DNA of 64,000 nt, from NCBI GenBank assembly GCA_965285935.1, contig OZ260667.1, positions 14,260,001 to 14,324,000 of the forward strand, given 5' to 3'. Position numbers and translations under genes: made by a program. Each line of letters starts with the position of its first letter. Position 1 is the stretch's first letter. Shown here one piece after another: positions 738 through 29,219 of the stretch. Below the pieces are notes generated by a model that made no database searches, was not told where the DNA came from, and saw nothing but the letters and a program-made list of their open reading frames with translations. The DNA comes from Ophelia neglecta. Its lineage: Eukaryota.

Positions 738-3069
738 TTGCCTTACAAAGAAGGAATCGAGGCAGACGACTTTTAGTAGGAACTGAAGAATTCGACTGAG
801 ACTTTTCCTTGTTCTAAACAATGGACTCTCGTAAGGGAAAATAACCTTGCCCATGGAATACGCCCATGAACAAATTAACACACACATAAATAGCCATCAT
901 GTTAATATTTCTTGTAATTAATTTATCCTTGCTATTAAGCCCATTATATAGTTTGGCCGAGACATTATATCCACAAGCACTGACACCGAATTTATTAAAG
1001 GTTGGCTAATTATTACAGGTTATTGTCTAGACTCCTCAGTATACGACGCCACCGCCGAAGAGGTTGGTCCCAATATGCCTCTTTTTTATTAAATGATTTG
1101 GCCCAAGTTGATTTACTTAAGTCACCCAATATTTCTAGAAAGAACTCTCACAATCTAAGCTTAGTGTCAGCATTGACAGCCCTATTTCCATAGTTAAACT
1201 ATTGCAAGAATAAACTAATTTCAACTATTATTATCATAGGAAACACTAGAATTATGTAGTACCGGAGCAAATTATGAAAAGCGTTTGGTCAGGTCAGGTC
1301 GGTTCAAGCGTATTAATTCAAACAATAGTATACATTAGTTCGATACAGCAAAGAAAAGGAAGTCTCCTAAAAAAAAGTTCGCTAGCGGAGCAGCTACCTT
1401 AAATGCGGTAAATTGGCAAAGTTGGGTTACACAAAGAATAGGCTCATTATTACAAATGATTTAATAACATCATCTTATAAGTCCTGTTTTCTGCAATATT
1501 GGCTGAATTATAGTGAAGAGTAGATTCTCGGTATGGCGGCGGTGATTCCTATCGTACTAAACGTCACGGATAATTGTGTTATTGTGACCAAGACCCTCAA
1601 AACACGGGTGTAGACATCTTATTAATAGGCCTATATATATATACCATCTTTGAAAACTGGCGAACTTCTGGGCGTTTGAGTGAAAAGAGTCCTGGTAATC
1701 GAAGCTGATTACCGTTGTGCTGAGCTAGAAATTGACAGTGGAAAAAACGTGATGCCTCTTTGAAAAAAGACTCTTCAAGAGAGGAGTGAGAGGGGGATGT
1801 CATTTCACCGGTGGGCTTATAATAAGATACTACGGTTATTATTTGAGCGTCTTCAAACAAAAGTGGCCTAATTGACATTTCTGTAACTTACACTTTAAAT
1901 GTTCAGTGCTCGGATAACAAGTGTGTCACGTGCAGCGCTATTGTATTGTAAATGTCACTTACATAAGTTTTACAAATAAGACAATTTGCAGCTCTAGACA
2001 ACCATAAAAAGCAACCCTTGGCTTGGCGCGATCTACATAATAGGAAATAGACCTTGTCACATAGTTAACTGTTAACTCAATTAGTCCTTTATAACACTAA
2101 AGCCTTCTCGACCTCTTGAGCAATCTATAGCTGTTGATTAGGAAAACGATTCATGTCTGCGTTTATTGAATGATTTTTCTTAACAATAAGAGCTGGAATA
2201 TTGCTCTGGAAAACGAGTTGTGCAACTCATTGCTCTGTTCTATCATGCTCGTTAAGTTTGGCATCATCCTACACTATCATAATATAATGTCACTCTTGCA
2301 CTAAGTGTTTAAGCATTTCTCAAGTTGGTGATTTTTTTTCGCCTAAGGAGATTTCGGTCATAGACAGTTTATATTACTACTGCCTCGCCGGGACCGGCAG
2401 TTCGCAATTGTGTTGGAGGTAATTCTCTACCTTTCTGAGATGGTTGTCATACTGGCTGTCGTGGTAGGCAGGCGGCCGCTGTCATTTGCTTCCAGGAAAC
2501 TTTATCATAGGGTTGGTGAGTGCTTCAAACTAATTGTGTATGTGTATCAAATATCGGGCACTATGTTGTGCGTGTCTGCTTATGTGTTCCTTCGGTTGAC
2601 ATTTAAAGTTGAAGTTTAAGTCGACTAAAATGAAAATCATTTCAGCTCTTGGGTTCATGTTTAGTCAAAATCTGAATCAGAATCTTGAGAATGATAGTAG
2701 AGGCAGAAATAGGAATCAGTCGATTGACTTATTTCCCGTCCATACGATACCTCAAAATGCGTTGTCCTACCGTCTACATTCTGATTGTAACCAAGACCGC
2801 AGCATCGTTTTGCCTTTATAGCCCCCATTGCTGTCACAGCATTATCTATAGCACGCATTTCCGCTACAGCTTGTAGCCTCTATATAGGATTCAATAATCA
2901 TGATCACTAGGCCTATTGCAAACCAAACAGTAATATGGTGACCGGATAGTATATATACTAGGGATAATAGGGATATTGAAGGAGTGCACTTCAGTAAATA
3001 TAATATCATTGGTCTGGTATATCATAATGATGAATAGATAATAGTGAGAGATAATGCGTACGAAACGGT

Positions 3070-3240
3070 AGTGACTAAACGACGGAGGTAGATTTGACGG
3101 AGCTATCTGCACCCATGTATAAGCGGCGGATCTGGCGGAGCTATCTGCGCAATGTATAAGCACCTCCGTCAAATTAATTGGCGGAGCTATCTGCGCCCAT
3201 GTATAAGCGACTACTGACTAAACCGCGGAGGTAGATCTAA
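3070..3240. repeat. Clustered imperfect repeats (3 x GGAGCTATCTGCNCCCATGTATAAGC)
   Basis: The motif recurs near 3099, 3137 and 3184, flanked by two copies of tgactaaac..ggaggtagat. Confidence 0.7.
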
Positions 3241-3429
3241 TATGGGTGGCCATATACATGTATGTTAGGAGGACATAGCGGACAGTATATAGAGCTTGGG
3301 GGGGGGGGGGGATATTTGGCGGATGTACTGGCAAGGTTTCGTGCCTCCTATTTAATTAAAAACCAAGTAAACTTTACCACCAAACATATAAGGCATCATT
3401 TGATAAAATGCTTTGAAAGTAAAAGCTTT

Positions 3430-3908
3430 TTATTGTTCCCCATGTTGAGAAAATAACAGATGGTGGGGGGTTGGGTAAGGCAATAGATTTGTATCGTTGT
3501 TGCAATATGCCAGAAGTGTTTGATGAATTGTCAGAGACCCCGTCAGCCGGTATTTAATGTCGGGACGAAAGCGGTACCGGACCCGCACTTCCTCTGCACT
3601 GTATACCTCCAAAGGGTTTGAATGGTCTCTGAAAACTTCAGGATGGTTGTTTTGGCCTCTTATTATTCTATTAAGTCGCCGGCGATGGTGGCGTCTGCCA
3701 TTCGCTGCCATCTTGATGTTTGATTCTTAATCGGTATTAGGGAACGTAATCCACCTTCAGACCAGGTTTAAGATCTAATACCAAATCACCAATATTTAAT
3801 ACCTAATACACTTTCCAGATACCCGATTAACTAGCTAATGCCGATTAAGCAATTTAATACCATTTTTAATCGGATTAAGGCTTAATACCGCTACCAGAAA
3901 CCGGCCCC
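3430..3908 (-). mobile_element. PIF/Harbinger transposon fragment (N-terminus of a HARBI1-like transposase, internally deleted)
   Basis: ORF 3430-3711 contains VFRDHSNPLEVYSAEEVRVRYRF...LTIHQTLLA, matching the N-terminal RVFRDRxNPL...ERYRF...ALTxxQ pattern of Harbinger transposases. A putative terminus GGGGCCGGTTTCT lies on the minus strand at 3908-3896. The partner end was not found. Confidence 0.65.
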
Positions 3909-4815
3909 TGGATGTTAGAAATGACCACTCCCTAAGTGGTGGTATGGCGGCAAGGTTGATAGCATCCAATCTCAGCCATGCAGGGGAAAACCATGAAATT
4001 TGATATTACGCAATATAGCCTAATTTTGCTGTGTGAGGCTCCACCTGTCTAACGAATAAATGTCGAATGTGTTTATTTAACCCATGCTTGGCAGAGTGGC
4101 CCTGAAAACTACAATTCTACAATTCCAACGTTCAGGCGAGGGGCCGACCTCTTTCGGACTTACAAGCTCATGTCTAAGTTCTTCGGTCACTACCTGACGG
4201 TAAGAACATTCAAAAATTGAATGAGCGATATTTACCGTATACCCGGTAATTTTTCCAGCGATAATAGTATTAACTCTGCCAGCGGTTGGATGAATCACAA
4301 ATATAAAAATAGAAATGTCGACACTTTATATGGTTTTCAAGGGTTCTCTCATATGCAAGCTCTTTACCTCGATTTAGACAATCTGCAGTCAAGCGACATT
4401 GTAGCGGCACGCTTCACTAGGGCGTTAGCCCTAGCCGCCGAGGATGTATCTATCTGTAACGTGAAACTAGCAAAGGTGCCCATGCTACGGGCGTCCAATC
4501 CCTGGCTGGGACAGCGAGATGTATTATGATGAAGGTAGTTCCTTAAATCGTACGAAGCAGTGCCTGGTAATCTGTTTACACGCGTGTTGTGCATAGAGGC
4601 TCGCTAGGCCAGGATGGCTGGATTTGATATCACTTCCGGTCTGGGCCTTATCTAAAGGAAGTTTTGACTAACACCATAAAGTATCGCCGCGTCAGACAGT
4701 GAAAAATGAAATTATACTAAACAGAGCCACAAAGAACTCTTAGCCTTGCACATGTATGACAGATCCGGTCTATTACAGAAACTTAAACCTTTTGATGGAG
4801 AACAGTTTTCACGCG

Positions 4816-5280
4816 TTAAGGCACTCTGGATGCACACTTTGGTCGAGTACTCAATGTTTCCCCGATGGTTTGGTTCTGTTTTATTGCTTCGTTGACGTCT
4901 TTGGCGCTATTTCTAGCTTCAATTTCTAGCTTTAATTGTCTATTTTTCTCCTTGAATAATTCCGTAGATTTTTCTAGTAGGGTGATTCTATGTTGTAGGA
5001 CGGCGTTTACAGCTTGAATATCTATCTCTTTTCTAAGCTTATTTTTATCGATTTGGCTTGCTTTCATTATGTGTTTGCCAAGTTCAACAAATGCTCAGTT
5101 CGGTTTGCCTGGATTTGTTTTCACTTAATTTAAGCTTCTCTTCTGACTCGATTAGGAAAAAACACTTTCATCCCGATCTTCGTCTTCGTTGTAATTTTTA
5201 TCATCTTTCTCGTCTCCAGCCTGCAGTTCATTGCACAACTTTCATGAGGAGATTCAACTATTTGTTAATTAGTTGTTTTT
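4816..5280 (-). mobile_element. Possible decayed non-LTR retrotransposon ORF1 (coiled-coil) fragment
   Basis: Heptad-like charged ORF (LQHRITLLEKSTELFKEKNRQLKLEIE) with upstream stops. No diagnostic domain seen. Confidence 0.25.
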
Positions 5281-5977
5281 AGTATTTTCCTAGACTGTTT
5301 ACAAAATATATTTTGATGAGGTCAATGAGGGAAAAGTGAAAGAACTCTTCACGGCTCTACTGAATGGTCCTGGAGTCTTAAGCCGACGTCATGTGAGCCT
5401 TTCACACCTTGTACTCGGACACTTATATAGCTGGGCTTTTCAGAATCACTGTTTGGTACACCAAGCTATGCGATGTGACATTGAACCCGTGGAGAAGTAT
5501 TCATTGGGTGTGACTATTTGTTAAGATGCTATTGGATGAGCTGGTAGGCTAATTTTCAGACAAATCTGTAATCAGTTAAAAAATTGTCAAATATATGTCA
5601 CTCTGCCTAAGGGCAAATCGACGAAAAGGTAACCATAGACCTACCCTGGTTAATTATTCAATCACGGGTGTGAACAAGGCGGTAGGGGCTAAGGTCGTTC
5701 GGTATTTACGCGATGTATTCGTTTGGTACCATTTTGTGCAGACCCTAACAGGTATGTAAATAATTAAGCAATAAAACAATAAAACCTGCCCCCCCCCCCC
5801 CACCAATATTTTTTTTAAACTCTGAACAAGCCCATCTATGTATATATCTTCTGTGAACCCCCCCCCCCCCGCTTTTCAATTCCTCCACATGGAGTGCCCC
5901 CCCCCTGGAAATTCCTGGATCCGCTCCTGTCTTTCATTGGTCATTGGTTAGCAATCTTAATCCTGATTAAAAAGAAA

Positions 5978-6192
5978 AGGTCAGTAAAGGACAGAACCGA
6001 TATGAATGCTTCCAGTCCTCCGGGACGTTTTTATAAACATGATAAGACCCGCACGGCCTTGTCACTTCAAATGTGTGTCAAGGGTTGGATGCTGTGGTCC
6101 ACTCAGCCCTTCTTGACTTGACCCTGATACTGGTTAACATAACTTAAATCTATTGTGGTAAAAGCTGTGGTCCACTAGTGCTGCTGCCCGTG
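5978..6192 (+). promoter_or_regulatory. Candidate CYP4 promoter and non-coding first exon
   Basis: AGGTCA-gtaa-AGGACA (DR4-type nuclear receptor element) at 5978-5993, TATAAA at 6032-6037, Inr-like TCACTTC at 6062-6068, strong donor TG|GTAAGT at 6192/6193, and acceptor ttttcag| at 6727, six nt before the CYP ATG. Confidence 0.45.
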
Positions 6193-6733
6193 GTAAGTGT
6201 ACTGTGATCTGTTAGTAAGGGTAAATGTTATTTTTGAATCAGAGGATCTGGAGCTAACCAGGGCAAAAGTAACAATTTTGCTGTCTTCACAAGTTCTAGG
6301 TCAGCGCCTGTGTATCATTTTTTTGATCTTATCGGGCTAATATCGGTAAAAAACACTTTATGTATCATTCAAACCATGGGTTCGGATAATGTACTGCATG
6401 CACGTCAAACCCAGAACCCCAAAGGTCCATAGTATAGATAATATAGGTCGGAGGGAGCGGGGGGGGGGGGGGTAGTGGATGCAAAAAAAGGGTACAAATT
6501 AGATACCCGGGTCTATCCGGACTTCGTTAGATATTTAAAATAGGCTAAATGGGCTTTATTCATTCTTATATTCTGTAATGCGTCAGCTATGAAAGAAAGG
6601 CTATGATAATACGTAACTCTATATTCTGTAAATAGCAATCAATTATATTAGTTCATGTCTCTTCGCTTGGAGAATATCAATGTGGACTAGAATTTACCCT
6701 TTTTGGAGAAAGTGCGTTTATTTTCAGTACAAT

Positions 6734-9700
6734 ATGGAGCTTACCACAGTACTTCTGACCGTCGTTGTTGCCATCTGTATAGCAGTCTGTATATTTCTAT
6801 CTGGCATTGTGCGATGGCTACTCAAAATCAGACACGTTGGCAAAAAAGTCAACTTATTACCCGGGCCGAAAGGAAATTTGCTCACCGGAACCCTCCTTCA
6901 GGTAACATACATGTCTTGTTCTCATCGAGAAAAGTAGTAAGTTAATTCAGATTGCGTAGAACATAAAAAGAAACTTTTATGCCTATAGTTTTTACATTAA
7001 AGCATGGATATCTACCATAACGATAAAATGTAAAACAGATTCAAAAGATTCATTTATAATGATGGATAAAACCTTTTATTAACAGCCAGGTGGGCGATGT
7101 AATATGATATTTGTTTAATTATAGCAAATTTCCATTGAACGATTCATCGATTCAGTTTTTACACTTTAGATTCCGAAACCCAGCGAGGCATTGCTGACTT
7201 GGCATACCCAGCTGTGTAGAGAGTATAAGACAGCCTTCCGATACTGGTTCGGCCCATTTCGCCCCACGGTAGGACTTGTTCATCCGTCCACTGTCAAAAT
7301 CATGTTGAAAACTTCTGAACCGAAACCGGTCTCAGGGAAAGGCGGCTACGCTCTGCTACTTGACTGGTTAGGTATGTAAAGATTATAGAACAATGACAGG
7401 CTACGGGTGAAAGCAGATGTGGTAAATAAGAATGAGGGGAGGGGAGGGGGTTATTTTAAAGTGTTTTATGCACATTTGGCCTGACATAGGCGAGGATTAC
7501 AATTCAAGATGGCAGTGGTAATTTTTTAATAACTCATGAAACTTATAAAGTAGCCTAACACCAAGATTTGTTGTAATAAAATAAATAATTGAAGCGACCG
7601 AGTGATCATAACTTTGTTGTCGCTCTTTTCTGATTTTGGTTTAATACTATATACGTCCTGTTGAGGTTACGGTTTGCTGTTGAACGGATGGCCGGGCTGG
7701 ATCCGAAACAGACGGCTGTTGACCCCAGCGTTCCATTTCGACATTCTGAAACCTTACAGTAAAGTTTACAACGAAGCCACTGACATATTTTTGGTAATTT
7801 CCTATTGAGATATTCTGTTAACTCCACATCCTCTTTGGTTATTATTTAAGTCTCTGAAATGATACAAATTAATTCCATCTTAACAACATCTCGTGTATAA
7901 GGCGGGTACTAATCACTGATGCGGCGAAAGAGTTGGTCCACTGACTTACATCATCAAGGCTATGTTATTGTAATTGTCTCTCTTAAAACATGCAGCAAGG
8001 TACACAAGTATATAATACTGTACCCCTAAAAAAGCGTCCAGTAATAACAGAAGGTTATGGTGTATTCCTATTTTAAATCTTATGTCTTGCTCCATCGGTT
8101 TGATAATACTAAAAAAGAGAAATAAAAGAAGTTATTGTCTTAAAGGAGAAGATGGCTAGGTTGAGCCGCGCCCAGACCAAGCCCAGTAGAGGTGTCGAGG
8201 TGTTTACCCCCGTCAGTCTGTGTACGCTCAATGTCATGTTAAGATGTGCCTTCTCCAATGACGACGATGTACAGAGACAAGGGTAAGAGACTTCAATACC
8301 AATAGATTGTATAAATATATAGTTCTTGACTCAGTCGGTGTTGAACAATGACATTGTCTCTATGACAATAAATCATTTTTCTGTAGATATACACATTGAC
8401 AGTATTCTGTTTCTGAATTTCATCCGTCCTATATACTAAGAGATGTTTCTTTATGCCTTGTGATATTACCTAAGAGCAGTTTTGCAGAGAAATTAGTAAA
8501 TATATCCTGGGTCACTGATCCCACGGATGCTGATTACGACATTCGGTGTAAACAATGGTTAGCATGATTAACTCGGCTCGGGACTGTGATAGGCGCACCT
8601 TAAGCCACAGAATGAAGCCCTCTTCTTAGGGTACATAGAGCAAAAGAGCCTGTCAAGAAAAATTTAGAAAAGCATACTCTATGAGACACTGGTTGTCCTA
8701 AGAATATATCAATCAACGGCTTTTGATTAAAAGCGGAGGCGCGGAGCCTTGCGGAGGTAAATCCCGAAATTAGAACAGAGCACTAGACCTATCAAACCTG
8801 TCCCTAACCCTTCCCTAAAATTAACCCTCCGTCCTAACCCTTTCCTTGCTGACGATTATTTGCTTCATGCCACTCAGAAATACTCATGACCTCCGCCTCC
8901 GCATAGCCTCCGCACCTCCGCGTTTAATCAATAACCCAATCAACAGCTAAGACTGGATTTCATTGGAACCAAATTGAATGTGTTCTGTTTCAGAGTCGAA
9001 CACCCTTATGTCAAAACCGTAACACTTCTTGCCCAACTTGTGATGAAAAGAGCATTGTAAGTATTCATTACTTTGAAATGTGCAGATTTATAAATATGAG
9101 ATCTTGTGATTGATTGTAGAATACACTGTAATGATTAAAAACAAGTTCGCAAAACTTATAATATGGATAAAAAGGAATAATTTCATCCTGAGACTTGAAG
9201 TCACATGTGTGCGACGATTCCCTCAAACCCGGACGAAGTCACATAATGCATCCGCCTTTATAATTTTAGTAATCCCATCCTTTACTTTGACAACATTTAC
9301 CGCATGACGGCAAATGGCAAGAAGTGGAGCTCTGGTTGTGATTACGCCCACCAGGTGGCCTACGATCTAATAGAGAGGAGGCAATATCAATTAGTAAGTA
9401 AGTGAGCTAGTCAAATTAATAAGGATGACTTACATAAATGCCTACGTGTCGAAAACGGATTATTTTTTACTGTTGCTGAACATATATATTAATGTACACA
9501 ATAACCGCTGTGTTAATAAAATGTATGCTATTTTGCTTTTATAGAAGGACAAGACATCGAGTGACATCACATCTAAGCGTGCCATGGACTTCCTAGATAT
9601 CCTGTTGCTGGCCAGAGACGAGAAGGGAGAGGGTTTAACAAAACTCGAGATGAGACAGGAAGTAGACACTTTCCTGTTTGAAGGTTCATATGAGATTTTA

Positions 9701-11306
9701 AGTTATCGCAGCTATATATAGATTCATTAACTTATTAAACTGACTCCTTTTTACAATAAGATGCCCTCATGATTGTTATTGGGATATTTCTTTACACATG
9801 GATTTATAATGGATTGTATGAATTGAAAACACATCGGCTGGTTAAGTAATGTAGGCATGTGATACACAGGGCATGACACGACAGCCAGCGCCATCTCGTG
9901 GTGCCTGTACAATCTAGCAGGCCACCCGGAGTACCAGTCTAAGGCGAGAGAGGAGGTGGATGAAGTCTTGCAGGGCAGGCAATCAGACTATATCGAGTGG
10001 TGAGAAAAAGACCTTCGTATAAACTAGTGATTAATGCTGTCTTCGACAGATGGCGCTGTTTTAATATGCCCACCACAAACACCTTCCCTTCCGGGGATAT
10101 TCATGGCGAAATCGCACTATAGCAATATTCGTATAAGAGTCAGTCTTGCCTCACAGTAATTCCTTAAAGCTAATGAAACTTTTCTTTATACAACTGTTTT
10201 TAGGGACGACTTGAACAAGCTGCCCTACCTGACCATATGTCTGAAGGAGTCGATGCGACACACCCCTCCCGTACCTTTTATCAGCCGGGAGCTGATCCAC
10301 CCTCTGGAGATCGACCGAGTCCATTTAGAGCCGGGTACTTTAGTAAATATCTCAATCTGGAGTGTTCACCACAACCCTCTTGTGTGGGGAGAAGATCACA
10401 TGGTGAGACTAAATGGGTACTAATAGAGAAAAGGGCAATATTATTTTTTACCTCTAAATATGTGGTTTCTTGTACATTTCATGATATCAAATCGATAATT
10501 ATATAATAATATGTTCCTTAGATGATGTTTTTACAATGAGATATAAATTACAACATTACTTTATTCGAAATTGTAAATATGAGATATTAACCTCTGCTGG
10601 TGTATTTCCCCAGGAATACCGACCCGATAGATTCTCCCCTGACAACTTGGAGACTATGGATTCTCACGCGTTCATCCCTTTTTCGGCAGGTCCGAGGTAT
10701 GACATATTCATTCTGGGCTACGTGTCTCTCAGTATACCAAACAGATTTATGAACCCATTTGTGACCTGTGAAATAAAACGTTTCTCTCATAGCAAGCATA
10801 TACACAACTACAATATGTCTTTTCCTTTTTAGAAATTGCATAGGCCAAAATTTTGCAATGAATGAATTGAAAACAATTATTGCTAGGGTCCTACACAGGT
10901 AAATGGCGCGGACTACTCGCTCATTATTATTTCTTGTTATATTTTCAATTCATAATATAACAGAAAGATACGGTTGAGTTAAAAACACTGTGATTCAAAA
11001 AATACCACGTGCTTTAGGGAATGAAAGTATACAGGCTGTCGAAAAACATGTGTCCAAGTTAGAAACCTTAAAGGTTAATTGGTATAGTATGAGAACATCC
11101 CTGACCATGTTTTACCAAAAATACATCCTCCCATGCCATGTATTTTAGTCAATGATATCATGTCTGATCTACCAAGTACTGATTTACTTTTAACTATAAC
11201 TAGATTCAGCTTGGCTGTGGACCCTGACCGTGTACCCGAGCGCGTCCCGGAGCTAGTCATGCGGGCCAAGGATGGGCTATATGTCATCTTAACCGAGCGA
11301 TTGTAG
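6734..11306 (+). CDS. CYP4: Cytochrome P450 family 4 (CYP4F/4B-like), 12 coding exons, 513 aa, intact
   Basis: Exons 6734-6901, 7170-7371, 7666-7793, 8146-8282, 8994-9056, 9270-9393, 9545-9683, 9870-9999, 10204-10402, 10614-10696, 10833-10898, 11204-11306. All introns are GT-AG and phase-consistent (1542 nt). Motifs: N-terminal TM plus [28 protein letters not shown]-helix [16 protein letters not shown] (CYP4 signature), ExxR (KESMR), PDRF, heme motif PFSAGPRNCIG. Confidence 0.95.
8718..8936. mobile_element. MITE in CYP4 intron 4 (GG termini, 8-bp TSD)
   Basis: Imperfect ~40-bp TIRs (ggcttttgattaaaagcggagg... / ...cctccgcgtttaatcaataacc), TSD CAATCAAC at 8710-8717 and 8937-8944, internal cctaaccct motifs. 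Confidence 0.8.
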
Positions 11307-12379
11307 GAGCTCAATCAAAAACAGATGGTGCCTTTCAAATTGATGTTTATGATGAATTATATATCTAGGATTACTTGGACAATCATACCAGCTTCAAACA
11401 ATGGCTCTGGTTCTAAAATAATTAAAAATAAACAAATTAAATGGCTAACTCAGATGAAGTCATTGTAGAAAAGACTGTATTAAAAATATTAAAATACATG
11501 CTTCTATATTTTATTATAACCAAACTGGCAAAAGAGAAATATTATCAATCATTGACCGTAAAATATATTCTATCCCATTTATAATACTGTTTGAATTATA
11601 TTTGAAATCATTGACTCCCGATATGTTTAGATTCATCTTTCCTTGTTCTGTCGGGTCAGGCAAGATATGTTAGGCTTTCTGGTGATACATGGATCTTTGC
11701 ATTTATTCCGTGTTGTCTGTTTAAAAAAAAATATATATCTCTCTCGGCTAGTAAAAATACTCTGCTGGGGGTCGTTTTTACCAGTCCAATAAAAGTCGCT
11801 TTGCCACAACTGTACCACAACATTTCTGTGGCATTATCTCTGTAAGGTTGTTGAGAACAAATGTACTTTTGCAAATTTCAAGAAACACATGCAAATTTCA
11901 AGAAACAATTGAAGGTATTTCTACTTAAGAATGATGTTTAGGTGTGATAAACTAGGTTTGTTCTTGTTGTTGTATTGTGTATGTGGTGTAATAATATGCA
12001 TATTTGATAAACATAATTTATACTTTATGAGCCAGTGAAAATATTCTTTGTCTAGAGATAGGATACATGTCCCATTTAGGGATCTTTCTGCTTTGTTCGG
12101 TTTTATGAATATCTCTTTATAATAAGTTTTATGACCGTATACATATATTTATATCACAAAGAGCAATATAAAAATTTGACATGAAAACTAATTTGACTTG
12201 AACTGTTTCTTCTTTAATGGTCATAACTTTCGTTGTATCGTCTCTGTGGGATAATGACTGTATCCGATTCGATTTTGTTTTATCACTTCCGAATGTTTAC
12301 CTCGCTACAATGTATATTCATGTCCATGTGTAATGCAACTGCGTTCCCCCGGGACGTGTTCTGTTAATAACAGTAAAAC

Positions 12380-13190
12380 GGCTTGCATGTAAGGAGGATT
12401 AGAACTATTAAGTTATATGTTGTTTTATCAATATTATTTTTAACTAATCGACACAGCATAAGTAAACGTGTGGTTAGCCAGAGACCGTCAAATTCTCTGA
12501 TAAGAAACGTGTCCCAATCACTAGGAATTGCGATGCCCCTTCTCTTCAGTGAGGAACCAGCCAAGAAGGGACTGCCATAAAACATTAGAATACGCGCTAA
12601 GAGGCCACACAAACCTCAGTATAAATCAAAGTGGGCTGTTATTTAGTGTGGACCATCCTTTTCTAGGAGCTTCACCTGTTGTAATTCTTTCATAAAATTG
12701 TCACGGCAAAGGTGTATCGGAGGGCTGATGCTCTTACAAACTTAGAAACAGAAATCATCGTTCGAAATAAATAATGATCCCTCATATTACCTAAATTTAA
12801 AATTGGGAAGCTAAAAGAAACACCTGTGTTTCTTCCAGGTACAGGTGCAAATGTGAGTGTACACACTCGATTACTGTCAATTCTTGTGGAAGTGGAAGAG
12901 ACCAGGGATACCTTACCTTGAAAGTGTTTTAACATGCATTCTTCCAGAGCTTCTCACAAGTACAACGGATTACGAGGCATAAGAAACACAAACAACTGTG
13001 ATCCTGAACATACTAGAAGCAGAAAAACCGTTAGCCCGACATATATGGTATATCATGATAATGGCACTCCCATGGTTAGATGTGATTCTGATACATGTAA
13101 ATATTAATGGTATCATTTCGCGTGTGTCAAAATGAAAAGAGACCCTTAAGGAGATCCAACGGCTGCGCAAAGACTGTAAAAAATCCACCA
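12380..13190 (+). pseudogene. Decayed YqaJ-like exonuclease/recombinase + PHD finger ORF of an ISL2EU-type transposon
   Basis: Broken translation: APSLQ*GTSQEGTAIKH* (cf. A..WG...E..A...Y), INQSGLLFSVDHPFLGASPVVILS*NCHGKGVSEG*CSY (cf. SGL.....PFLGASPDG...C.CCG.G.LEIKCPY), then MVRCDSDTCKY*WYHFACVKMKRDP*G (ING-type PHD finger). Confidence 0.8.
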
Positions 13191-13799
13191 AATGCATGCC
13201 GGCCAAAAACACATGACTAAACCGCGAACAGTATTTTGTGTTCAGTACTTCACTGAAGAAGCAAATTAAGGTTTAAAAATAATGATTTTATTATTAAAGT
13301 GATCTTGTGCTTGTGTTCATTTCATTATTGAGGAAGCCACAGACTTTATTTAAATTAAGCTACAGGTACATGTATGCAGACCTTTTTATAAAAACGCCCT
13401 TTTATGTCAGAATGGTAATGTGTGTCTTCTTACATGTTGTACCAACCTCACGCAATGCTCATTGTTTGAAGTAAACATAGTTTTATTCCTTTCACTTTTC
13501 ATCGCAGTTTCATCGCAAGTACTTCCGAGGGGTCAAAGCATTACAAAGATGCATGCGCAAATATCACATGAGGCACGTTCGATTAATCTTTAATCATTCT
13601 CTCATCCCCTATTTTTACTACGTTAATTACAGTGTACATGCCATCTTTATAATATGCAGGTAGACACTAAATGACCGCATTTTTATATTTAATTTATTTT
13701 ATATAAAAATGTTTATATATTACCACGAGGCCAACAAACCCAGACATCAATAAATCTGCATAATACTAGTTGATGATTTCCCTCCAAAGACCGTCTACT

Positions 13800-14144
13800 T
13801 TATTCATTATACACTATACTTTCGCCAATATTAGTGAACAGTTGCAGGCGTGACCAGCTTATTACTGGATGGTCTTTGCTCATTGGCCTCTTCCTTACAT
13901 GATTAATCATAGTGATTGGCAACCTTTTCCGAAGTATTGCATTTCGGCTTTTCAGTAAACCCATCACCTGACATTTAAGAATTGACGTGAGGTCTCTATG
14001 CAGACATTTAACCTTTTTTCTTGGTAAAGGCTGGAAAGAGAAGTTATTCGCTGCATGCAGTTGAAAAGTGATCCATTTGGTCATCCAGCAACTGATCCTA
14101 TGGCTGGTGATATATAAAGCCTGGCTAGCTAACAACCTCAACAT
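13800..14144 (-). pseudogene. C-terminal remnant of an ISL2EU/Harbinger-type DDE (DDE_Tnp_4-like) transposase
   Basis: FPAFTKKKG*MSA (cf. IPAFTKGKxQLS) and VMGLLKSRNAILRKRLPITMI...FTNIGESIVY (cf. VIGLLKxKYxIL..xLPI...LxNLGESVV). Convergent with the YqaJ ORF. Confidence 0.7.
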
Positions 14145-14846
14145 CGCCCCCCCCCCCCCCTGGCATAGTAGGCCTATTGGCTGATAACTTCGTACTAACT
14201 ATTACTATTTCATGACATAGATTATGCTTCTACGGTTAGAATGCAGTCCATATATTTAGCGAACTTGAGATCGGGTGCCTTTAATAGTAAATACGCAGAA
14301 CGGAATTCTGATAAGCAATAACAGCGGACTCCGCAGCCCCTCCATGTATAGTTTTTTGAGACCCCAGGTTACTATAGCACTAAGCATAGCACGCCAGGCG
14401 AAGTATTTGAAAGTGCTGGAAACAGAAAACCTTAAATTTCGATAGCATAATTGGTAACCTTTATTTCTTATCTTGCCAATAAGGACTTTTTAGTTTGAAA
14501 AATAGTCAAATTTTCCCAGAAGGATAATTCTTATTCAGGATTTCAATTTAATACGTTAAGATTGATAAGATGCTGTACAAAATACATCCGACTGTTGCCA
14601 TGTGTTGTTTCAGCTGGTTGTTTACAACGAATAGCTTTGAGATTTTTTTTTATACGTCTCATCAAGACGCAATATATCATATCAATCTATATTTGGTTCT
14701 CATCTATACATCTATTGTACGACCGCGGATAACTCGCTCAACTAAACCGGAGATCATCCAGTTAAGACTGATTACACATTGATCGGTTTATCACCGTACA
14801 GTGATATCTTACTATAGATAAGCATGTGCACGAACAAAACAATATA

Positions 14847-15049
14847 CAGTGAAACCTGGTCTAAAGGGCACCTGGAAATTAGGGGCACCTGATAATTAGG
14901 GACAGCTACATTAGGACCCAACATATCGGTCTGATTTTGGAGGTGGTCTGTTTAGACAAATTATTTAACATCGAAAGTATACAGCATAGTCATCATGTTA
15001 GTGGCAGGTGGTCTGATAATAGAGGTGGTATTTAAGGCAGGTTCCACTG
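14847..15049. mobile_element. Tc1/mariner-pogo-type MITE (family A), full length
   Basis: TA|CAGTGAAACCTG...CAGGTTCCACTG|TA with internal GACCACC/GGTGGTC repeats. Confidence 0.85.
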
Positions 15050-18000
15050 TAATAGCAGACTCAAACCTTACACACATTGCTTACAAACCGATCGGCTACA
15101 GCCTGATGTGACACTGTTACATCCATAAGGTACGATCGATTGTAACTAACGCTAAATATGCTTTAACGTATTAAAATAGTTGGTGACCCCCATTTTATAC
15201 TTATTTAATTTAGAAGATGTCGGAAACCACCAAAGTATTTATTTTCCTCATAATATCACAACAAACATGATTACTTCATCTTAAGGATACACAAAGTATA
15301 GTTCTGCTTGAAGATAGGCAGTGCAAAGAAATGTAGAAAAGAAAAATGATAAACGAGTCTTTAAAAACTCATCGAGTGTTAACGAGCACTCGGTCAACAG
15401 GAATGTCTGTACAGAGACTGCTAGTTCCACTGATGCATCGCTTGTGAATGCAATGTACACTCCTCTTACCCAACCGCCTCGTGGTGGGGCGGGCGTGTTG
15501 ACAAGGCGAAATAAGCCCCTCCATTCGTTGCACAAAACTCACAAAAGATACTATAGTCTTGACATTCTTACTGGCGATAGCTGAAAGTGATCATTTTAGA
15601 CAGATTTGAAGCGGGAACATGCAAAAGGTCTACCGGGTGTCCTTGCCCTTAGGGTCGGTTTTATTTAAGAGTTTCCTCTTAATGGTTAATACCGCTCTTA
15701 GTGCATGGACTAACTGAACATTCAAACCTTTCTCTTTATGTAGAGGCAGAATGGGGACCCTAACTCTTGTAGCTGATATCTCGGAAACAAATTGCAAAAC
15801 TCTACCCTAGACCAAATATATATCTCAGGGCTGACGATGTTTTGTTAATTTAATATTTACCTTGCCCCCTCCCCCTTCCCCCAACCCTCTTTGTAGAGCC
15901 ACTTTATTGTTGGTCTCTTAAAGGCCCAATAATATCCGGTCCTCCCCATAAATAAATATATTTCAATACTCAGGAAGCATCTCAGTAGCGAAAACGTATA
16001 TGTTTTTCTATAGGAATCCATAAATCACGGAATATCACAATGGACAACTTAAGAATAGCTCATATTTAAAAATAGAAATATGAAACCGGCCTGTTTATAA
16101 ATAGGAAATCTTTGTTGAATTCTTTTGACTTTAGGACATATCCATTCATTAAATGCGCAGTCACATATTTCTTGATTGTATGTTCTGATATATATATATA
16201 GAACGTGCACTGTCTGATTCATCATATTAATATTTTATTTTTACTCTTGAGTGAATATTTTCAAGGTCTTCTGAGAATTCGATTACCTACATTTCTGCGA
16301 CTGAAAAAGTATATTTTTCAGAAAAATGTCCTATTTTCTAATCTACTCCAAGTTTGACTTCACAAAACTTCACCAGACTTTTCTTTATGTTACACTTTGG
16401 TTGCAAGACATCGCTTAGTGTACTGTTGCCTCTGTTGGTGGCATTTAAATATGGAAGATAGTGGCCATGATAGGTCTCATAAGGAATTACTTGTTGAATC
16501 CTTTCACTTTAAGGCCTTTCCATTCATTATATACGCAAAGTCAGATAATTCTCCATTTTAAGTACTGTTATGTACATATATGTTCTCGGGCACTGCTTGA
16601 GTTGGCTCGATGGACCTTGTCACCATTGAAGATAAAGAGATCATTTGGCTTTAGTGAGATACTACCTTGAATATATTCTCCTAGTACGTAGGGCTCCATC
16701 AATTTTGTTGGAAACTTCCTTTTCGACATGCCTTGCGAGGGTTAAGTGCATTAATGGTCTACCTCACTTTGAGTAAAATTGCAGGAAAAGCAAAAAAATT
16801 TTCATCTTATCAAAAACCGATGTTTATGCAACAACGTTCTAACTTAATGAGATAGGCCGTTGCTGCACCCACTACTTTTGTCGGATTTTTCCTTTGTGTT
16901 ATAACTTGAGTTACCAATTGCTGAATTACTTCGCCCTGCCTCAAGTTGTCCTCTGTCACATAGAGATCTATCGATTCGAGCTCTAAAGGGGGATTTAAAC
17001 GTCTACCATGTACTTAATCACGAAAGAGAATGTTGATGTGTCTCACACCAAAAACCTTGTCGAGGATCAGCGAGGTCACTTCATCGTGGATCTACCCCGA
17101 GTCGATTGCGGGACATATTTTTCAATTACTTCCAAACATGCAGCTTTCACTTTTGCGTTCATCTCCTGCATATTTTGCAGCTGGCATATTGTTAAGACAT
17201 TTTTACTACCTTTCATCGTTAGCAAGAATCCTTTACCAACTCGTCTGTGTTACATATTTGTTATGAGAGACGACAGACCGTAGTCATGCCAGTGAATGGA
17301 AAACAATTACAAAAATGTTAATGCAGAGAGTCCCTATCTTCTTGTTAGCAACATATCAAGCTTGGTTTATACGTTAGAAGTTTGCAGGGAACACAGAACA
17401 CGCAGGACAGCTAAGATTTTGTCTGAGTACTTGCGATTATCATATTGCAATACCCTAGATTTATATTTCAATGACATCCTCGAATGATTTGTCATCTACA
17501 TGATTGTATACCTATGATATGTGTAGTGTATAAAAAGTCGGTCAGACCCTATAAACATTGCTAAAGTGCAATACAGTTAATACGACAGAAAATCTAGTGT
17601 TTTTTCAGTGTTTAGATTTAATAGCCAACTCTTCCCTTTTATTCATTAAGCATCCCATAGAGTGGGAGTTTAAATTATTGCATCATGCATATAAGGCAGT
17701 TACACACAAGACACGGTTTTCTAGCCGGGAAAAATACCGAAAAAATAAAGACTGAATGGTTTTATAAAATGTCGGAATTGTTCTGGCCCTTTTGCACATG
17801 AAAGCATCTTTGCATGCCCGAAAGGATGGATAGTTAAAATGACAAAAACTTTATTTTGACAACTTATGCACCAGATTGCCTGCTCATAGAAATGTTTATT
17901 TCGTTATAATGTATTAACATGGTACAGTTCAATATATTCCTGCTAGCAAAACGGGGAAACTTCTGACTAAATACGTACATTTCATTTACCTAATCCTATA

Positions 18001-18819
18001 TTAAGAAGTCTGATTCCAACGAATAACTAAGATAAAGGTAGACAATGCCAAACGTGGCAGCCGGTTTGAAAGTGGCTTCAATACCGCTACTTGCTTATTT
18101 TTAGCTTGCTTGAACAAGAAGACATGGGTGTACTAATCAATATCAACATCATTCGTATAAGTGTCTGGGAGGCTGAGATATTAATTAAGACAGCTCCTTA
18201 TCGGCGAGCAATAATTATGTGATTGCGATTTTGAAGGTCAACGAAACAAGAAAGGAAAGGAGATAGCACAAAGAAGGCAGAGCCCAACATACTTAAATTG
18301 TGCCAAAAAGTTGATCTTCCACCTTTTGCTTAAAGATGCCAAAGAGAGTCAAAATTTGTTCAAATCCGACCAGTATATATTAATGCTGTATCAGGTTATC
18401 TGCCCTCTTTTATGTGGTGTATTGCATTACCGTACTCTGTCATATTTAGAGCTCTTCCTGCTCAGAGCTAACTAAACGGTTGGAAGCATCGCTATTGGTT
18501 GAAGCATTGCTTCCTGGCTGGATGAAAACTAACATTATATGGGACAGTTGGTATATTACAACAAATTTGTAGACCCGTGCAGTGATATTTGAAATTTTCC
18601 CTGAGGGGTAAAATTCCCTAGTAAGCCCGTCACTTTGTTTTTCTATGTTTAATAGGCATGTATAAACCGAAAGAGAGGTTGACTGGTGCTCGGAACATTA
18701 TTTAATATTATTTGCTATTGGTATTTGTTACCGGTCTTGTTATCGTATAATATCGAATATCACCATTTAGTAATAATACAGTGTTATGTGACATTGCATG
18801 AACTTATGGGTTAATGAGG

Positions 18820-19085
18820 ATAAGTGTGAGTTATTGCGGGTTATTGGGAGTTATTGTTGATAATTGTGACATATTGTGAATTATTGTTAAGGTTATTATG
18901 CATTAGTGTAATTTATCGTGGTTTATCATGAATTATTGTAGGTTATAATGTATTTTTGTAGGTTATCGTGAGTAATCGTGAATTATTGTGAGTTAGCATA
19001 GTTTATCGTGGTTTATCGTTGTTTATTGTGGTTTATCGTGAGTTATCGTTAGTTATCGTATAGTATTGTGAGTTATCGTGTCACT
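18820..19085. repeat. Degenerate 10-bp tandem repeat (GTTATYGTGA)n
   Basis: Roughly 25 imperfect units such as gtttatcgtg, agttatcgtg, agttattgtg. Confidence 0.85.
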
Positions 19086-19175
19086 TATTTTATGCTATTG
19101 TGCAATGTTGCTACTAGTTTAAACTATTATACCAATAACATGATTTTGCAGGGCGTTACGCTATATCAGTGGCCC

Positions 19176-19243
19176 GACATAAATTATCAGCAGCCCTTCG
19201 CCTCGGGCGCTATGACTATGGCGGGCTGCTAATAATTTATGTC
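19176..19243. repeat. 21-bp-stem inverted repeat (hairpin)
   Basis: gacataaattatcagcagccc ... gggctgctaataatttatgtc, 1 mismatch, 26-nt loop. Confidence 0.8.
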
Positions 19244-19316
19244 TAAACAGACCACCTCCGAAATAAGACCAGTATTTGCCAGTCCCTTAGGTGGTCTTAA
19301 TTCACAGGTTTCACTG
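19241..19316. mobile_element. MITE family A, right half only
   Basis: taaacagaccacctccgaaataagacc...cacaggtttcactg|ta matches the 3' half of 29783-29960. Confidence 0.8.
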
Positions 19317-20079
19317 TATATTCAAAAAGGCATAGAAAGAATGTTTCCGTCAATACTACTTGTATTTTTCCCTTTTCGGCGTTGTAATCTGGTAGACTCT
19401 ATACCCAGTAGTATGTATCTAGAGGCGCACCAGAATCTGTATCCATAGGTTAATCGTAATTGAGACGTAGAACCCGAACAAAATTTGGTAAAACAAGTAT
19501 TTTCGGCACTGAAAAAGATATGACGACTAGTTACTTTATTAGGTATTGTATTTGACCGGTGATTGCACGTAGGGTGGTGGCAGCATTGCTCTTAACGTGG
19601 GTAAGATAATTTGGTATCTTAAAGACTGGCGAACATACCGGTTTCCTTTTTTTGGTACCTGGTACTGTTTCTTCCACGTTCGTTGGCTTTTCTTTTTCCT
19701 CTGTGTCAGCTTTGCCGGTCATTTCACTTACTTGGCTTTGTTTTGGAGGTTGGTTGAAGACATTACATAAAATTATTTGCGAAACCAGCAGGGAAATTGA
19801 GGTACATCATTGCAACATGGCGTCGGGCTCGTATGAATACTATAGAAATAATGCTACGCTGGTCGTGAATATGTTGTTTTTGCTTTATATTTGGCAAAGA
19901 AATTCTTTAGGAAGTATATTAAATGTGAAATACAATAAGCTACAAGCAATTAGATATGTCACATAATTATTTAGGATGCCCCTTAAGATAATAATGGGGA
20001 AGGGGTGGGCGCTACATTTATTGATGAATAGGGGTTTGTACTCGGGGTTGAGGAATTTAAACACCCGGAAGGTGTTCTC

Positions 20080-21256
20080 TTATATTATGGCCCTCCCTGG
20101 GATCTTCGCTTCTGCTGACAGAATAAAACATGCATTAAAACCCATCTTCTAGACCTTCCCTTGATTAACTAATTAAATTGTGTACCCCTCTAAAATTAAA
20201 TACATATAATGGAGTTGATCATACTTCCGTTGAGTTCCTCGATGTGGTACTTGCTGAAGACGAGATCGACTGTGATGTACAGCATGACGTGTGACATCAT
20301 CAGCCAGAATACTGTGGTATATTTATCTGCCCGACCGCCATCAAAGTACATGGCAAACCCAGAGAAAATGTTCACAACTAAGGGGAAAAACAGAAATCTA
20401 CATTATTTAGAATTATAAGATGTGTCTAGTTACTTACTGGCCCACTTGTCTTTGATTTACTGAGTACATGTATATTGCCCTGGAGAATGCGCATCCACCA
20501 GTTTTGTACAAACAAGTGTTTTGAAAACAATATTTTGGTTATTTGCCTTTTAAAATATGAATTGGTTCAGAACTGTACGACGAGATGACAACAGAAAGTT
20601 CCAGGACGGTAAAGAAAATCTTTATTTTGTTTAAATTATGCCTACAGGGAAAAGCTGTTGCTCTCCACAGGACACCGGGTGGGTAAACATTGATTTTCCC
20701 AGCCTGAACGATATTTAACCAGCCCTTGAGTCAATACAGTATACCCACCTCCCAGTATATGAGCCAGGGAGCCGATCGCCCAGTGGACCCAGTTGAAGGT
20801 ATGTCTATTCTCAGCATCAGGCTCAGGGCGAAACACAGCAATAATCGGCTGCGAAAGAAACAAACGAATGATAACACTTGAGGATCATTAAGAGATCGTG
20901 GAGAGATCTTGGCGATCACTGGGCGCTGACTGTCATGAGATCGAGCCAAAATATCATCGCCCAATGGTCGCATAACTTTGTTCCGTCCAGGGTAAGGACG
21001 GCATAACCGACCAGAGCATTTGACCAGTCAAGGAAATTAATCATTGTCCAATCTCACCACGTACATGAACCCCACTCACAAATCGAGGTGTAATTGATAT
21101 TTCGATATCTAATATTTAGCACTTTCTTTATTTAAACATACATGTTCTGTACTATCCCAGGCAATCGTCAAAACTAACAAGACTTACATTCACGATGACG
21201 AAGAGTGTGACAAACAAGCCAATGTACGGATGCGAATTACTGAAAGCACTGCTACG
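20080..21256 (-). pseudogene. FRRS1: 3' four exons of a ferric-chelate reductase 1 (FRRS1/SDR2)-like cytochrome b561 gene; 5' part not found in the window
   Basis: Exons 21256-21188, 20848-20749, 20377-20225, 20114-20080 splice in phase to RSSAFSNSHPYIGLFVTLFVIVNPIIAVFRPEPDAENRHTFNWVHWAIGSLAHILGVVNIFSGF...TEAKIPGRAII*. The HPxxG...P...FRP...R..FNWxHW pattern is typical of FRRS1. AATAAA on the minus strand near 20020. The exons themselves show no disablement. Confidence 0.8.
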
Positions 21257-21665
21257 CTAAAAGAATAAAAGATTACAATGTTTTATTTTTACTAATTCTG
21301 CTAATAAAAAGCTCTTTCAACACAGAATGAAGCCGTTACAACGAAGAGAAGGACTACATTCCGCTACTGGAGTGAACTATACAAAATTATATTCAATTGG
21401 AAAATCGTGTATTTTGTGAGTAACTTTGACGTTGAGATTTTTTTTTGAGACTGTATGGATTTTTTGTAAGTCTTGTTAGTTTTGACGATTGCCTGGGATA
21501 GTACAGAACATGAATGTTTAAATAAAGAAAGTGCTAAATATTAGATATCGAAATATCAATTACACCTCGATTTGTGAGTGGGGTTCATGTACGTGGTGAG
21601 ATTGGACAATGATTAATTTCCTTGACTGGTCAAATGCTCTGGTCGGTTATGCCGTCCTTACCCTG
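20988..21665. repeat. 201-bp inverted duplication (arms 20988-21188 and 21465-21665, 276-bp spacer)
   Basis: The arms are reverse complements with one mismatch by my reading (gaacatgTatg vs gaacatgAatg). Confidence 0.95.
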
Positions 21666-21690
21666 TGAGTGTTACTCTTGCGATCTGTGT

Positions 21691-21897
21691 AGTATCCTAA
21701 ATATGTAAGTTGGCTATCAAAGTGTTATCTTGCACTCATATTCAGTATCCTGAATATGTAGATTGTCTATCAAAGTGTTATCTTACACTCATGTCAGTAT
21801 CCTGAATATGTATGTTGTCTATCAAGGTGTCATCTTACACTCATATCATTATCCTGAATGTATATTGTCTATCAAAGTGTTATCTTACACTCATATT
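21691..21897. repeat. Tandem repeat, ~52-bp unit x4
   Basis: Unit agtatcctgaatatgtagattgtctatcaaagtgttatcttacactcatrtc. Starts 25 bp after the inverted-repeat arm. Confidence 0.9.
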
Positions 21898-24048
21898 ACA
21901 ATGTGTTGTATGGTAATCATAATAACCCTACAAGGTTACTATGTAAGTACATGTATATTAATAGTTATGAGATCTGGCATGTAATATTACATGGTCACAG
22001 CATAACTTTGTGATCTTGCTCAGCCTCTGTTGTTATCATCCGTTTCATCTCACTGCACCTTTTCATCCCCATTATCACCCATCCCGTTCTCATACTTCAT
22101 CACTGTTTTTATCATTGGTCGGTGAAATAGTCCTCTGGACTAATGTTACCTGTTAAAAAAAACTATGTAACCGACGGTAAATAAATTTTATCTTATCTTA
22201 TCTTATCTTAGACTATATATCATAGCGATTTTTATTATACTGTAGACAAAGACAAAGCACGACTCAGGAGTAAATGATCGGTCGCGGGTGAAAGTATATA
22301 CTATCTATATTTACCAGAAATTCAATGTAGCTGCTAACACCTTCCATCACTGTCAGTAACCTTACTGTAGTATTATAATTCCGGACATACAGCCCTCTCC
22401 TATAGCCGATCAAATGTAACCCTAAATCCTGACACAAATGTGTTTTGAACATGGAGCAGGACGGGGTGGAATAACTTTAATGAAAGAGGTGGATAAAAAT
22501 GATTATTGTTGCCACAATTATAAGTCAAAGTAAAGTTTTGGGGCGACATCGGAAAAAACTCCGGACTCTCCTCACACCTTGATTTACGGACTGCTGATAA
22601 TTGATTGAGAAACGGACAATCTTTTTTTTTGGGGGGGGGAGGGGGGGGGGGCGGGCTATATATTCTATATACCTATCACCTATATACCTATGTACCTATC
22701 AGCTTGGGGTTAGATCTTTACAATACTCATTACATGATCGTTAGGCCATTAATGAATAAATAGGGGCACTATACATTAAGACAATTAATGGCAATTACAC
22801 GAATTATACAGCTGGACCTAAACCAGCACTAACTTTTGAAGTTTGAATGACTTTGATCTGGCAGTTAGAGAGTGTGATAGAGCGCCGGGGACAGTCACTG
22901 ACAGCCCCGATTGGATCAAAGAATTGACAGCAATAATCGATAAAGCTAAAGATGACACTCAGATGACAGTTATCTGTGGCTGCAATGTTTTTAAATAGTT
23001 ATTTGCTATCTGATAATTTTGTGTTGCATGTATAACGTGCTTCTCAATTAAAATTATGCCTACACAACTAATTAACAAATGGGTGTGACAGATGTTATAT
23101 TATAACTCAACATCTGTCTTATGTATATATAGTCTTACCAAGAAACATACTATAAAAATATATAAAACATTTCTCCCCGTATACATAATTTTAGTATAAT
23201 TACGACACCCGTATAGCATCCACGCATGTGGACAAACTAAAGGAAAAAACTACAGTTGGGTGCTAGAAATAGTTAGAAAAAGATATTAATGTTGATACAA
23301 TATGCCAGATAAATGGCCCGGCCGGGGTGTAGGTAATGGAAAGACGTTTCAATTACCACATTTTCAAACCAAATATGCGTAGTTCTGCCTTGTCCCTCCT
23401 CAGGCAGCATTGATCAATTTGTATGGTTTGTATTACAAAAAAATGTTGTTTTTTTTTACACAAAAAGTCCCCCCTGTATCTTTATTGAATAAAAATAGTT
23501 TATTGCCACATAAAACATATAAATACAACATTACCAACATGAATGATATGATGAATTAAACACGTGACATAGAACTTTACAACAAAAGAACAGTTTGTCA
23601 CTTCGCCTGGATTAGAGCACAATAATTAGTTGTATCTGGTCGCTTAGGCCTATGTCCGCCTTACAGGATTTAAAAAACACAAAGCTTTCACGGAGAATAA
23701 CATGTATGCAATTACGTCTTTTATTCGAGGTATAATTTTAGTTAAGTTTGTCATGGGAGGTATGAATCTACTTGTCGAAAGAACATTGTATAATGTAATC
23801 ATATATGTGCTTGGATCCATATCTTATCATACGAAGGCCATTGTATACAATTTGTAAAGCCTGTCCTGAAAGTAGGAATTTATCTTCAGTGCTAGAAGGA
23901 TGCACACGTACAATGAAAAAAACTCCGAAATATTGTTTGGGCAAGCGGGCGGAGTGGGGCTGGGCGGACTGGGTGGGGTGATGTTGCCCCGTGGACGCGG
24001 GTTTCAAAACCTCCTTCCCCTGAGATAAAAGGTCCTATCTATACTAAG

Positions 24049-25580: not shown

Positions 25581-25679
25581 ATACTAAGAAGCACAACTGA
25601 GAAGGCTGTCATTAGCTGTGCACCTCGAGTTCTGCAATATAACATAAACCGCAGGAAAATAAAACAATATAATAAACTT

Positions 25680-26558
25680 TGCAATGTTTACTACACTGGG
25701 ATGACGAGCTAGAATTGGCTCACAAACTTCAGCTACAAAAACGCACTGTGTGGGTTAAAGAAGGTAAACCCAGAGGTCCGGAATATCATTCTTATAGGGA
25801 ATACAAGTCGGCCAAAACGAAATTTCGAATAAAACAATATGCCAAGTCTAACAGCCGTCAACATGAACGCTACGAGAAATCCCAACACCAGAGTGAATTC
25901 GACCTCCGCTCCTTTTGGAGGTATGTTCGTAGAAATCAGAGTCTCTACACCTAATCAAAAACGGAGATACTACCTACCGTACACTTGTGGAATTAATATA
26001 ATGAATGAAGGAATTTGTGCTTTAGAAATACATCAGTGGGCTTTTTCGATGTCAAACAAACCCGGATGTCACGTGTATAGCTATGCTTTTGGGGAGGAGT
26101 TGTCTCCAACTGTTCTGTATACCAGTTTGATAGACGGAATATAGAGTTACAAAACCTCGTAATTAACCTACTGTGGCTCTTCTATTTATACAACATCAGT
26201 TTAAAAGTATCATGTGCTCTGTGTAAATCTGAGGTACTATGTCCATTTAGTCATATGTTTTGCGTCACATATTTGGTTTGCGCTGTGTAACTTAATTAGT
26301 GTGGATACTTATGTAATTAAGGATAAATCTGATCTATATACTCTATTGAAACAAGTGTGTATATTCTATGGGCCTTTCTGTAAATCAATGTGAATAGTTA
26401 TGTGAACCTACCGGAACGTAGGTACCTTGATTGAATCGCCGATGTAGGCATCGTTATTATTGTTGTACATATATTTCACCCTCTACATAACTATGTTTGA
26501 TAACATTCTTTGATTAACCGTGTTGAATGTAATGCTCTCATCGAGTTGAGGATAATCG

Positions 26559-26635
<77 letters not shown>
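25680..26635 (+). mobile_element. Internally deleted 3' portion of a LINE (L2/CR1-group-like) ending in an (ATCA)n tail
   Basis: WDDELELAHK...WVKEGKPRGPEYHSYREYKSAKTKFR...DLRSFWRYVRR resembles the endonuclease-RT linker of such LINEs. A CALCKSEVLCPFSHMFC knuckle-like motif lies near 26212 and the microsatellite tail follows. Confidence 0.6.
26559..26635. repeat. (ATCA)n microsatellite, ~19 units
   Basis: Direct reading. Confidence 0.95.
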
Positions 26636-26636
<1 letters not shown>

Positions 26637-29135: not shown

Positions 29136-29219
29136 CTATACGGTAACCAGCTGAGAGGGATAAACGGTGTGCTATTGAACCTAACTAAACTAGAGGAGGC
29201 AAGAAAAACCAAAAGCTTG

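Follow-up and report, generated by a model that had tools for sequence, protein, structure and literature searches.

A Truncated Young LINE and an Inverted Copy of a Neighboring Intron Start in a Cytochrome b561 Gene Fragment of Ophelia neglecta

The window analyzed here, a 64,000-nt stretch of O. neglecta DNA, carries on its minus strand a three-exon 3' fragment of a cytochrome b561 gene, reduced to the final three b561 exons (table 1). The first surviving exon, 69 nt long, had been described by a sequence-only reading as FRRS1-like with phase 0-0. Both points hold: the exon shows b561 homology (E 0.006 against a Reeler-DOMON-b561 ORF of the same genome), and its phase fits the exon chain of a paralog described below. 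The exon that follows gave an Atlas lead to PF03188 at 0.92 (20% of members). The intron after the 69-nt exon has its likely branch point at about nucleotide 300. Profile and database searches were less informative. Pfam yielded no b561 match for five single-exon frames, a protein database search with one exon frame returned 17 candidates, none at E 0.001, and the b561 portion of a homologous protein had no match by sequence in the PDB. A complete b561 domain has four histidines as ligands. The window copy lacks the exons with the first two helices: the paralog's two upstream exons were not found anywhere in the 64-kb window, and no second near-identical copy of the first of them is present among its 10 genome matches. 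Relative to the paralog, the three exons of the window carry four amino-acid changes and one silent change, a ratio that suggests an earlier loss of function; at two of the four changed residues the paralog, rather than the window copy, resembles an outgroup. These comparisons hint that the fragment lost its function some time ago.

Table 1. Positions in the window of the b561 gene fragment, the inverted repeat, the LINE, and their flanks.
Feature	Position	Strand	Remarks
Segmental duplicate, part in the window	1190..21445	.	G000:C12:14244527-14281445 vs 14740805-14780489, 37 kb, inverted
Third b561 exon, 3' end not fixed	20231..20377	-	exon comparison with paralog
Next b561 exon, 100 nt	20749..20848	-	identical to paralog; tblastn E 5.7e-10
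Arm 1, template of arm 2	20988..21188	-	final exon base and nt 1-200 of the 339-nt intron
69-nt exon, phase 0-0, FRRS1-like cytochrome b561 domain (HP..G helix)	21188..21256	-	RSSAFSNSHPYIGLFVTLFVIVN; first surviving exon here
Upstream intron remnant	21257..21445	-	paralog homology stops at 21445 (possibly 21451)
Candidate left target-site duplication	21448..21456	+	AGACTGTAT; 8/9 match with right copy
8-nt linker	21457..21464	+	GGATTTTT; resembles 21435-21443
Arm 2, inverted copy of arm 1 with local alleles	21465..21665	+	one derived change at 21513
LINE 3' end, 5'-truncated, 547 nt	21664..22210	+	overlaps arm 2 by 2 nt (TG)
LINE, final 14 codons and stop	21664-21708	+	
LINE, four 52-nt repeats	21691-21896	+	
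LINE, (TCTTA)n tail	from about 22186	+	
Candidate right target-site duplication	22210..22218	+	AGACTATAT; pairs with 21448-21456
Right flank, unrelated to paralog	22212..23333	+	83-93% like G000:C12:32836116-32837782

The gene fragment belongs to an inverted segmental duplicate whose two copies differ by 1151 substitutions over 30,552 aligned bases (3.8%). The homology to the paralog ends 20 nt short of arm 2. The paralog lies 460 kb away, lacks arm 2, and has two further upstream b561 exons. Its five exons form one continuous open b561 frame, with which phase 0-0 of the 69-nt exon is consistent. An intronless Reeler-DOMON-b561 ORF present in the same genome matches them over its b561 part, a resemblance to FRRS1/SDR2-like Reeler-DOMON-cytochrome b561 genes. 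Unlike these genes, the window copy comprises only the last three b561 exons, and a search for Reeler or DOMON exons of the paralog found none either. As its first exon was not found, we consider the paralog a longer copy and not a proven intact gene. Other b561 relatives are present in the genome: two genes some 6.5 kb from each other are arranged head to head (L008-L005 region, G000:C12:14729954-14742016; no Reeler or DOMON exons found for this pair), a third relative maps at C12:31.79 Mb, and several intronless relatives of 620-636 aa are encoded elsewhere. The duplicate also contains, to the left of the window, a GPCR frame under purifying selection, part of which shows 9 silent and 3 replacement codons among 182, in contrast to the three b561 exons, and plus-strand exons that we take to be cytochrome P450-like from motifs at about 9543 and 10640.

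Four inverted pairs were identified in the 64-kb window, of which only one exceeds 80 nt. The three others are 55-78 nt long with 84-87% identity and originate from an old miniature inverted-repeat element (28468-28670, 29741-29979, 14920-15051, and 19240-19324). The long pair is a 201-nt inverted repeat with a single mismatch (21140/21513) and a 276-nt spacer. The sequence-only reading had described it correctly: arm 1 is made of the last exon base and the first 200 intron nucleotides, starting as T|GTAAGT at the donor of the 69-nt exon (21256-21188), and arm 2, which had been placed about 210 nt upstream of this exon, begins 208 nt upstream of it. A genome search with arm 1 hit three places: arm 1 itself, arm 2, and a locus 460 kb off. 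The counterpart of arm 1 in the paralog is 97-98% identical. At the five positions where the paralog differs, arm 2 always has the base of arm 1, and the sole change in arm 2 is private; arm 2 was therefore templated locally and recently. The mismatch between the arms is T to A, which is not of the editing type, and arm 2 contains no spliced joint.

Arm 2 directly abuts a second feature. Judged by its sequence, the plus-strand segment 21664-22210 is a young LINE that lacks its 5' part. Other copies extend upstream into a reverse-transcriptase frame, and three members of the family have open 1014-aa frames. In one of them (L030), this ORF matches RVT_1 (E 4.3e-31) and Exo_endo_phos_2 (E 2.2e-6). 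The family displays a common 3' end, a simple-repeat tail, and variable 5' truncation. It is small, with 24 near-identical 3' ends and 18 copies containing the junction motif, and diverges by 0.55-2.6% from the window copy, the nearest copy differing at 3 of 546 positions. The assignment to a young LINE relies on this low divergence and on the intact endonuclease and reverse-transcriptase frames of the relatives. The family may belong to the L2/CR1 group; its tail type and 3' motif are common to sister families. Three of these (L078, L079, and L080) have the same tail and, directly before it, a conserved inverted motif that is likely a recognition stem. Target duplications at other copies of the family are about 5-19 bp long. 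At L023 (G000:C7:27926600-27933200), a direct duplication of about 80 bp, far above the rest, flanks the LINE. At G000:C1:6.89-6.95 Mb, one LINE insertion has been multiplied four times in both orientations (L040-L042 and L044); L044 contains a 1016-nt inverted repeat (99%), the second arm of which begins at the cut-off of the LINE fragment.

Along the plus strand, the order is thus left flank, linker, arm 2, LINE 3' end, tail, and right flank. Arm 2 and the LINE lie at the terminus of the 37-kb duplicate, between the halves of a probable 9-bp target-site duplication. An 8/9 match of this kind is expected in 0.6% of random 28-nt windows. No single match to the linker was found within 19001-24500 or in the LINE. 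A lariat read-through was considered as the origin of the linker and discarded, since comparison by eye showed no agreement between the linker and the bases that precede the likely branch point. Attempts to reconstruct the empty site gave no match to the 130 kb lying left of the window. In the similar sequence at 32.8 Mb, an old miniature transposon stops exactly at the boundary and the homology goes no further.

We propose, with a probability of roughly 0.5, that fold-back DNA synthesis during the insertion of the LINE produced arm 2 from the nearby arm 1, and that arm 2 has no regulatory function. According to this model, the LINE endonuclease would have nicked the target at about 22210-22218, and reverse transcription primed at the tail would have halted after 547 nt. 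Resection of the other target end over at least 470 nt would have left the plus strand single stranded, a polarity consistent with the plus strand being the 3' overhang on the left side. With a short linker added, the free 3' end would then have annealed back at 21188 and been extended over 201 template nucleotides, before the new end was joined to the LINE cDNA through the TG overlap.

Several observations support this scenario, among them the youth of the LINE family and the local alleles of arm 2. There is no gap between arm 2 and the LINE, which starts precisely where arm 2 stops. The divergence between the arms (1/201) is close to that between the LINE and its nearest relative (3/546) and far below the 3.8% separating the paralogs. 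Finally, the candidate 9-bp duplication encloses the whole insert. Other observations argue against it. The homology at the fold-back point is 1 nt, with a linker of 8-13 nt, and the template lies 276 nt away from the insert. Arm 2 starts at most 1 nt from a real splice donor, with a chance of 0.6% for this donor and 1.3% for either splice site, and fold-back synthesis would make this start a coincidence. The candidate duplication, whose halves disagree at one position, extends across the junction of the segmental duplication, which requires either a further coincidence or a single complex event. We also surveyed the 5' junctions of the family. Among 25 other loci fetched, 8 near-full-length copies fell outside the comparison, and none of the 17 examinable truncated copies, representing 13 independent insertions, has an inverted local copy at its 5' junction.

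A similar arrangement is known from human cells. In the available text of PMC11702581, an inverted duplication beside a truncated L1 is explained by fold-back of the reciprocal end (Fig. S9C), and two inversion cases of Fig. S9 rest on homologies of 14 and 6 bp. The O. neglecta locus likewise combines a truncated LINE, its tail, a short target duplication, and an inverted copy of nearby sequence before the LINE 5' end. It differs from the L1 case as there described in being a germ-line event of a non-L1 LINE in an invertebrate-type genome, in the length of the copy (201 nt), in the single nucleotide of homology and the linker at the fold-back point, and in the start at a splice donor. The inverted local copy sits, as in such duplications, between the target end and the LINE 5' end; since the annealing point offers a single nucleotide of homology, we place the locus beside the LINE-associated templated inverted duplications as a case that works in a similar way, without counting it as a proven member. 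The accessible part of a tumor study (10.1101/2024.08.27.596794) describes 22 L1 templated insertions, typically <250 bp and templated within 15 bp of the site. Here, too, a local non-LINE segment below 250 bp has been duplicated, whereas the template is 276 nt away and the copy inverted. If fold-back synthesis is the correct reading, the locus would be a germ-line example of a LINE by-product so far known mainly from human cell and tumor work; located in a dead gene fragment, it would have little biological consequence.

The strongest competitor, which we hold to be distinctly less probable than DNA fold-back, involves RNA instead of DNA. The LINE reverse transcriptase would have switched through the TG onto intron RNA of the host gene and run off at the splice donor; a few bases would have been added and the target then joined. 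The LINE RNA may itself have been cut at a cryptic donor. It is conceivable, though less likely than not, that the spliced-out intron of the target gene was captured and that both templates were RNAs cut at splice donors. In the boldest form of this proposal, nascent RNA would have kept the cDNA attached to the source gene and so set off the 37-kb duplication. Run-off predicts the start of arm 2 at the donor (chance 0.6-1.3%) and needs no homology at this point. Arm 2 includes no exon sequence beyond one T, possibly part of a T-run linker. Arm 2 and the LINE have the same sense, as template switching requires according to the available text of two reports (PMC11702581; 10.1101/2025.02.02.635956). 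Moreover, the 5' end of the LINE piece coincides with a donor motif, T|GTGAGT, and the same holds for two other copies with different flanks, L016 and L032. Three of 14 independent 5' ends thus fall within 3 nt of one another, although three of the 14 (L017, L018/27, and L034) may be secondary deletions and not true truncations. In simulations, the chance was 1.6% for any such triple and 0.06% for one at GTRAG. The LINE site ranks third of 224 GT sites by donor score, a rank that is only indicative.

Several features of the LINE ends run counter to intron RNA capture. The base before the GT is kept at every start, and L032 retains another two LINE bases past its duplication. In both predicted structures (overall z 0.10), the 52-nt repeats are closed by an 11-bp stem whose foot lies at this same LINE site, and this stem provides a rival cause for a truncation hotspot at the donor site. 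No end occurs at an equally good donor at LINE position 3312, and the three clustered ends all belong to one subgroup, which makes a shared short source possible. In two sister families, none of 11 truncated ends lies at GTRAG; this test is weak because 5 of the 11 are downstream of the last donor. A general cutting of LINE RNAs at donors was rejected on the same ends. The host gene raises further difficulties: the copy ends at intron nucleotide 200, not near the likely branch point, no promoter is known for the window gene copy, and this copy may already have lost function, to judge from its exon changes. The clustered ends themselves (L016 at 3036, L032 at about 3000, and 21664 in the window), where the donor motif coincides with the foot of the stem, may mark a hotspot of truncation or derive from a short source element that they share.

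Chimeras with a host RNA 5' of a LINE 3' part have been described. The available text of 10.1101/2025.02.02.635956 reports U6/L1 and mRNA/L1 chimeras in which the partner is either a small RNA or an exon that terminates at a donor. The present locus resembles them in having same-sense host sequence 5' of a truncated LINE within one target duplication. It differs from those reported there in that the partner is an intron start from the insertion locus itself. For the TSI/TSIP insertions, an RNA origin is proposed in the accessible portion of PMC5110952, with distant donors and, in class 2, neither LINE nor target duplication; an intronic patch with microhomology and extra bases is common to them and to our locus. 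Our literature queries, part of which were weakly phrased, found no report of in-place intron capture by a LINE. If inverted copies linked to LINEs were to start at donors more often than by chance, this would imply that LINE enzymes copy host intron RNA on site. Were RNA capture true here, the locus would preserve, as a genomic fossil, the capture of an intron in place, with the implication that spliceosomal cleavage sets some LINE 5' ends.

We regard as improbable a third explanation, in which a template switch during the rearrangement that formed the duplicate or truncated the gene left arm 2 behind as a scar, the LINE having been captured there or having landed separately. Arm 2 does lie at most 20 nt from the end of the duplication, and a single complex event would remove the coincidence of a LINE landing on the junction. 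The depths of contigs derived from three sequencing runs (X1, X2, and X3) are also compatible with a junction on one haplotype only: they reach 6.9, 25.5, and 21.1 at the junction and 13.4, 23.6, and 38 in the paralog continuation, with X2 disagreeing and contig depth being a poor measure. Conversely, the arms differ by 0.5% and the duplicate by 3.8%. The candidate target duplication mixes letters of the left segment on the right with letters of the right flank on the left, which suggests that the junction predates the insertion, and the four amino-acid changes against one silent change point in the same direction, to an earlier loss of function. We therefore favor an older junction followed by a later LINE insertion, on the basis of the straddling target duplication and the apparent exon decay. 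One complex event is nevertheless possible, because the presence of the LINE on the junction would otherwise be coincidental and the depths fit one haplotype in two of the three runs. The suggestion from sequence alone that the repeat is a fold-back scar of the gene truncation thus came close as to the scar; its partner is an insertion of a LINE that had gone unnoticed, and the evidence for truncation in the same event is mixed.

Selection for the stem as an RNA element, masking the donor and promoting exon skipping, editing, or production of small RNAs, is very unlikely. A transcript spanning both arms is indeed predicted to form a 200-bp duplex including the donor (about -418 kcal/mol for 750 nt). 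However, the structure is young and tied to the LINE, and no minus-strand gene that could read through it was recognized by eye in 22211-31100. The sequence-only reading had proposed that the stem would bury the donor and favor in-frame skipping of the heme-ligand exon. Such regulated skipping finds no support, since it would need a donor further upstream, which the window copy, having no upstream exon, does not offer, and since the stem is absent from the longer paralog.

Least likely of all is that an assembly chimera produced the inverted repeat: the linker junction is present in contigs of all three runs, the arm 1 contig breaks exactly at 21188 in each of them, and a 276-nt spacer with a linker and a LINE is unlike a read fold-back product, although the runs are from one sample, possibly the assembled one, which limits this counter-evidence. 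In each run, one record leads from the paralog segment through the linker into 30 letters of arm 2, with no mismatch in X1 and X3 and one in X2. This reach is one letter below the 31-letter bridging threshold. The joint between arm 2 and the LINE and the 21513 allele are absent among the contig records listed, which is the point in favor of a chimera, although the missing cover of the joint proves nothing. We consider an artefact unlikely. In record 4 of X1, the right flank is preceded by 1125 unaligned letters; this record may represent another haplotype.

The remainder of the window contains other repeats and a probable gene. A 1.5-kb interspersed repeat occupies 24049-25580 and has many copies at 84-96%. 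Plus-strand exons at about 29990-36550, ~8 kb from the junction, presumably encode an ABCC-type transporter. Two young tandem arrays with 94-96% matches were identified at 44436-45608 (80 nt x 14.7) and 51939-53455 (72 nt x 21.2).
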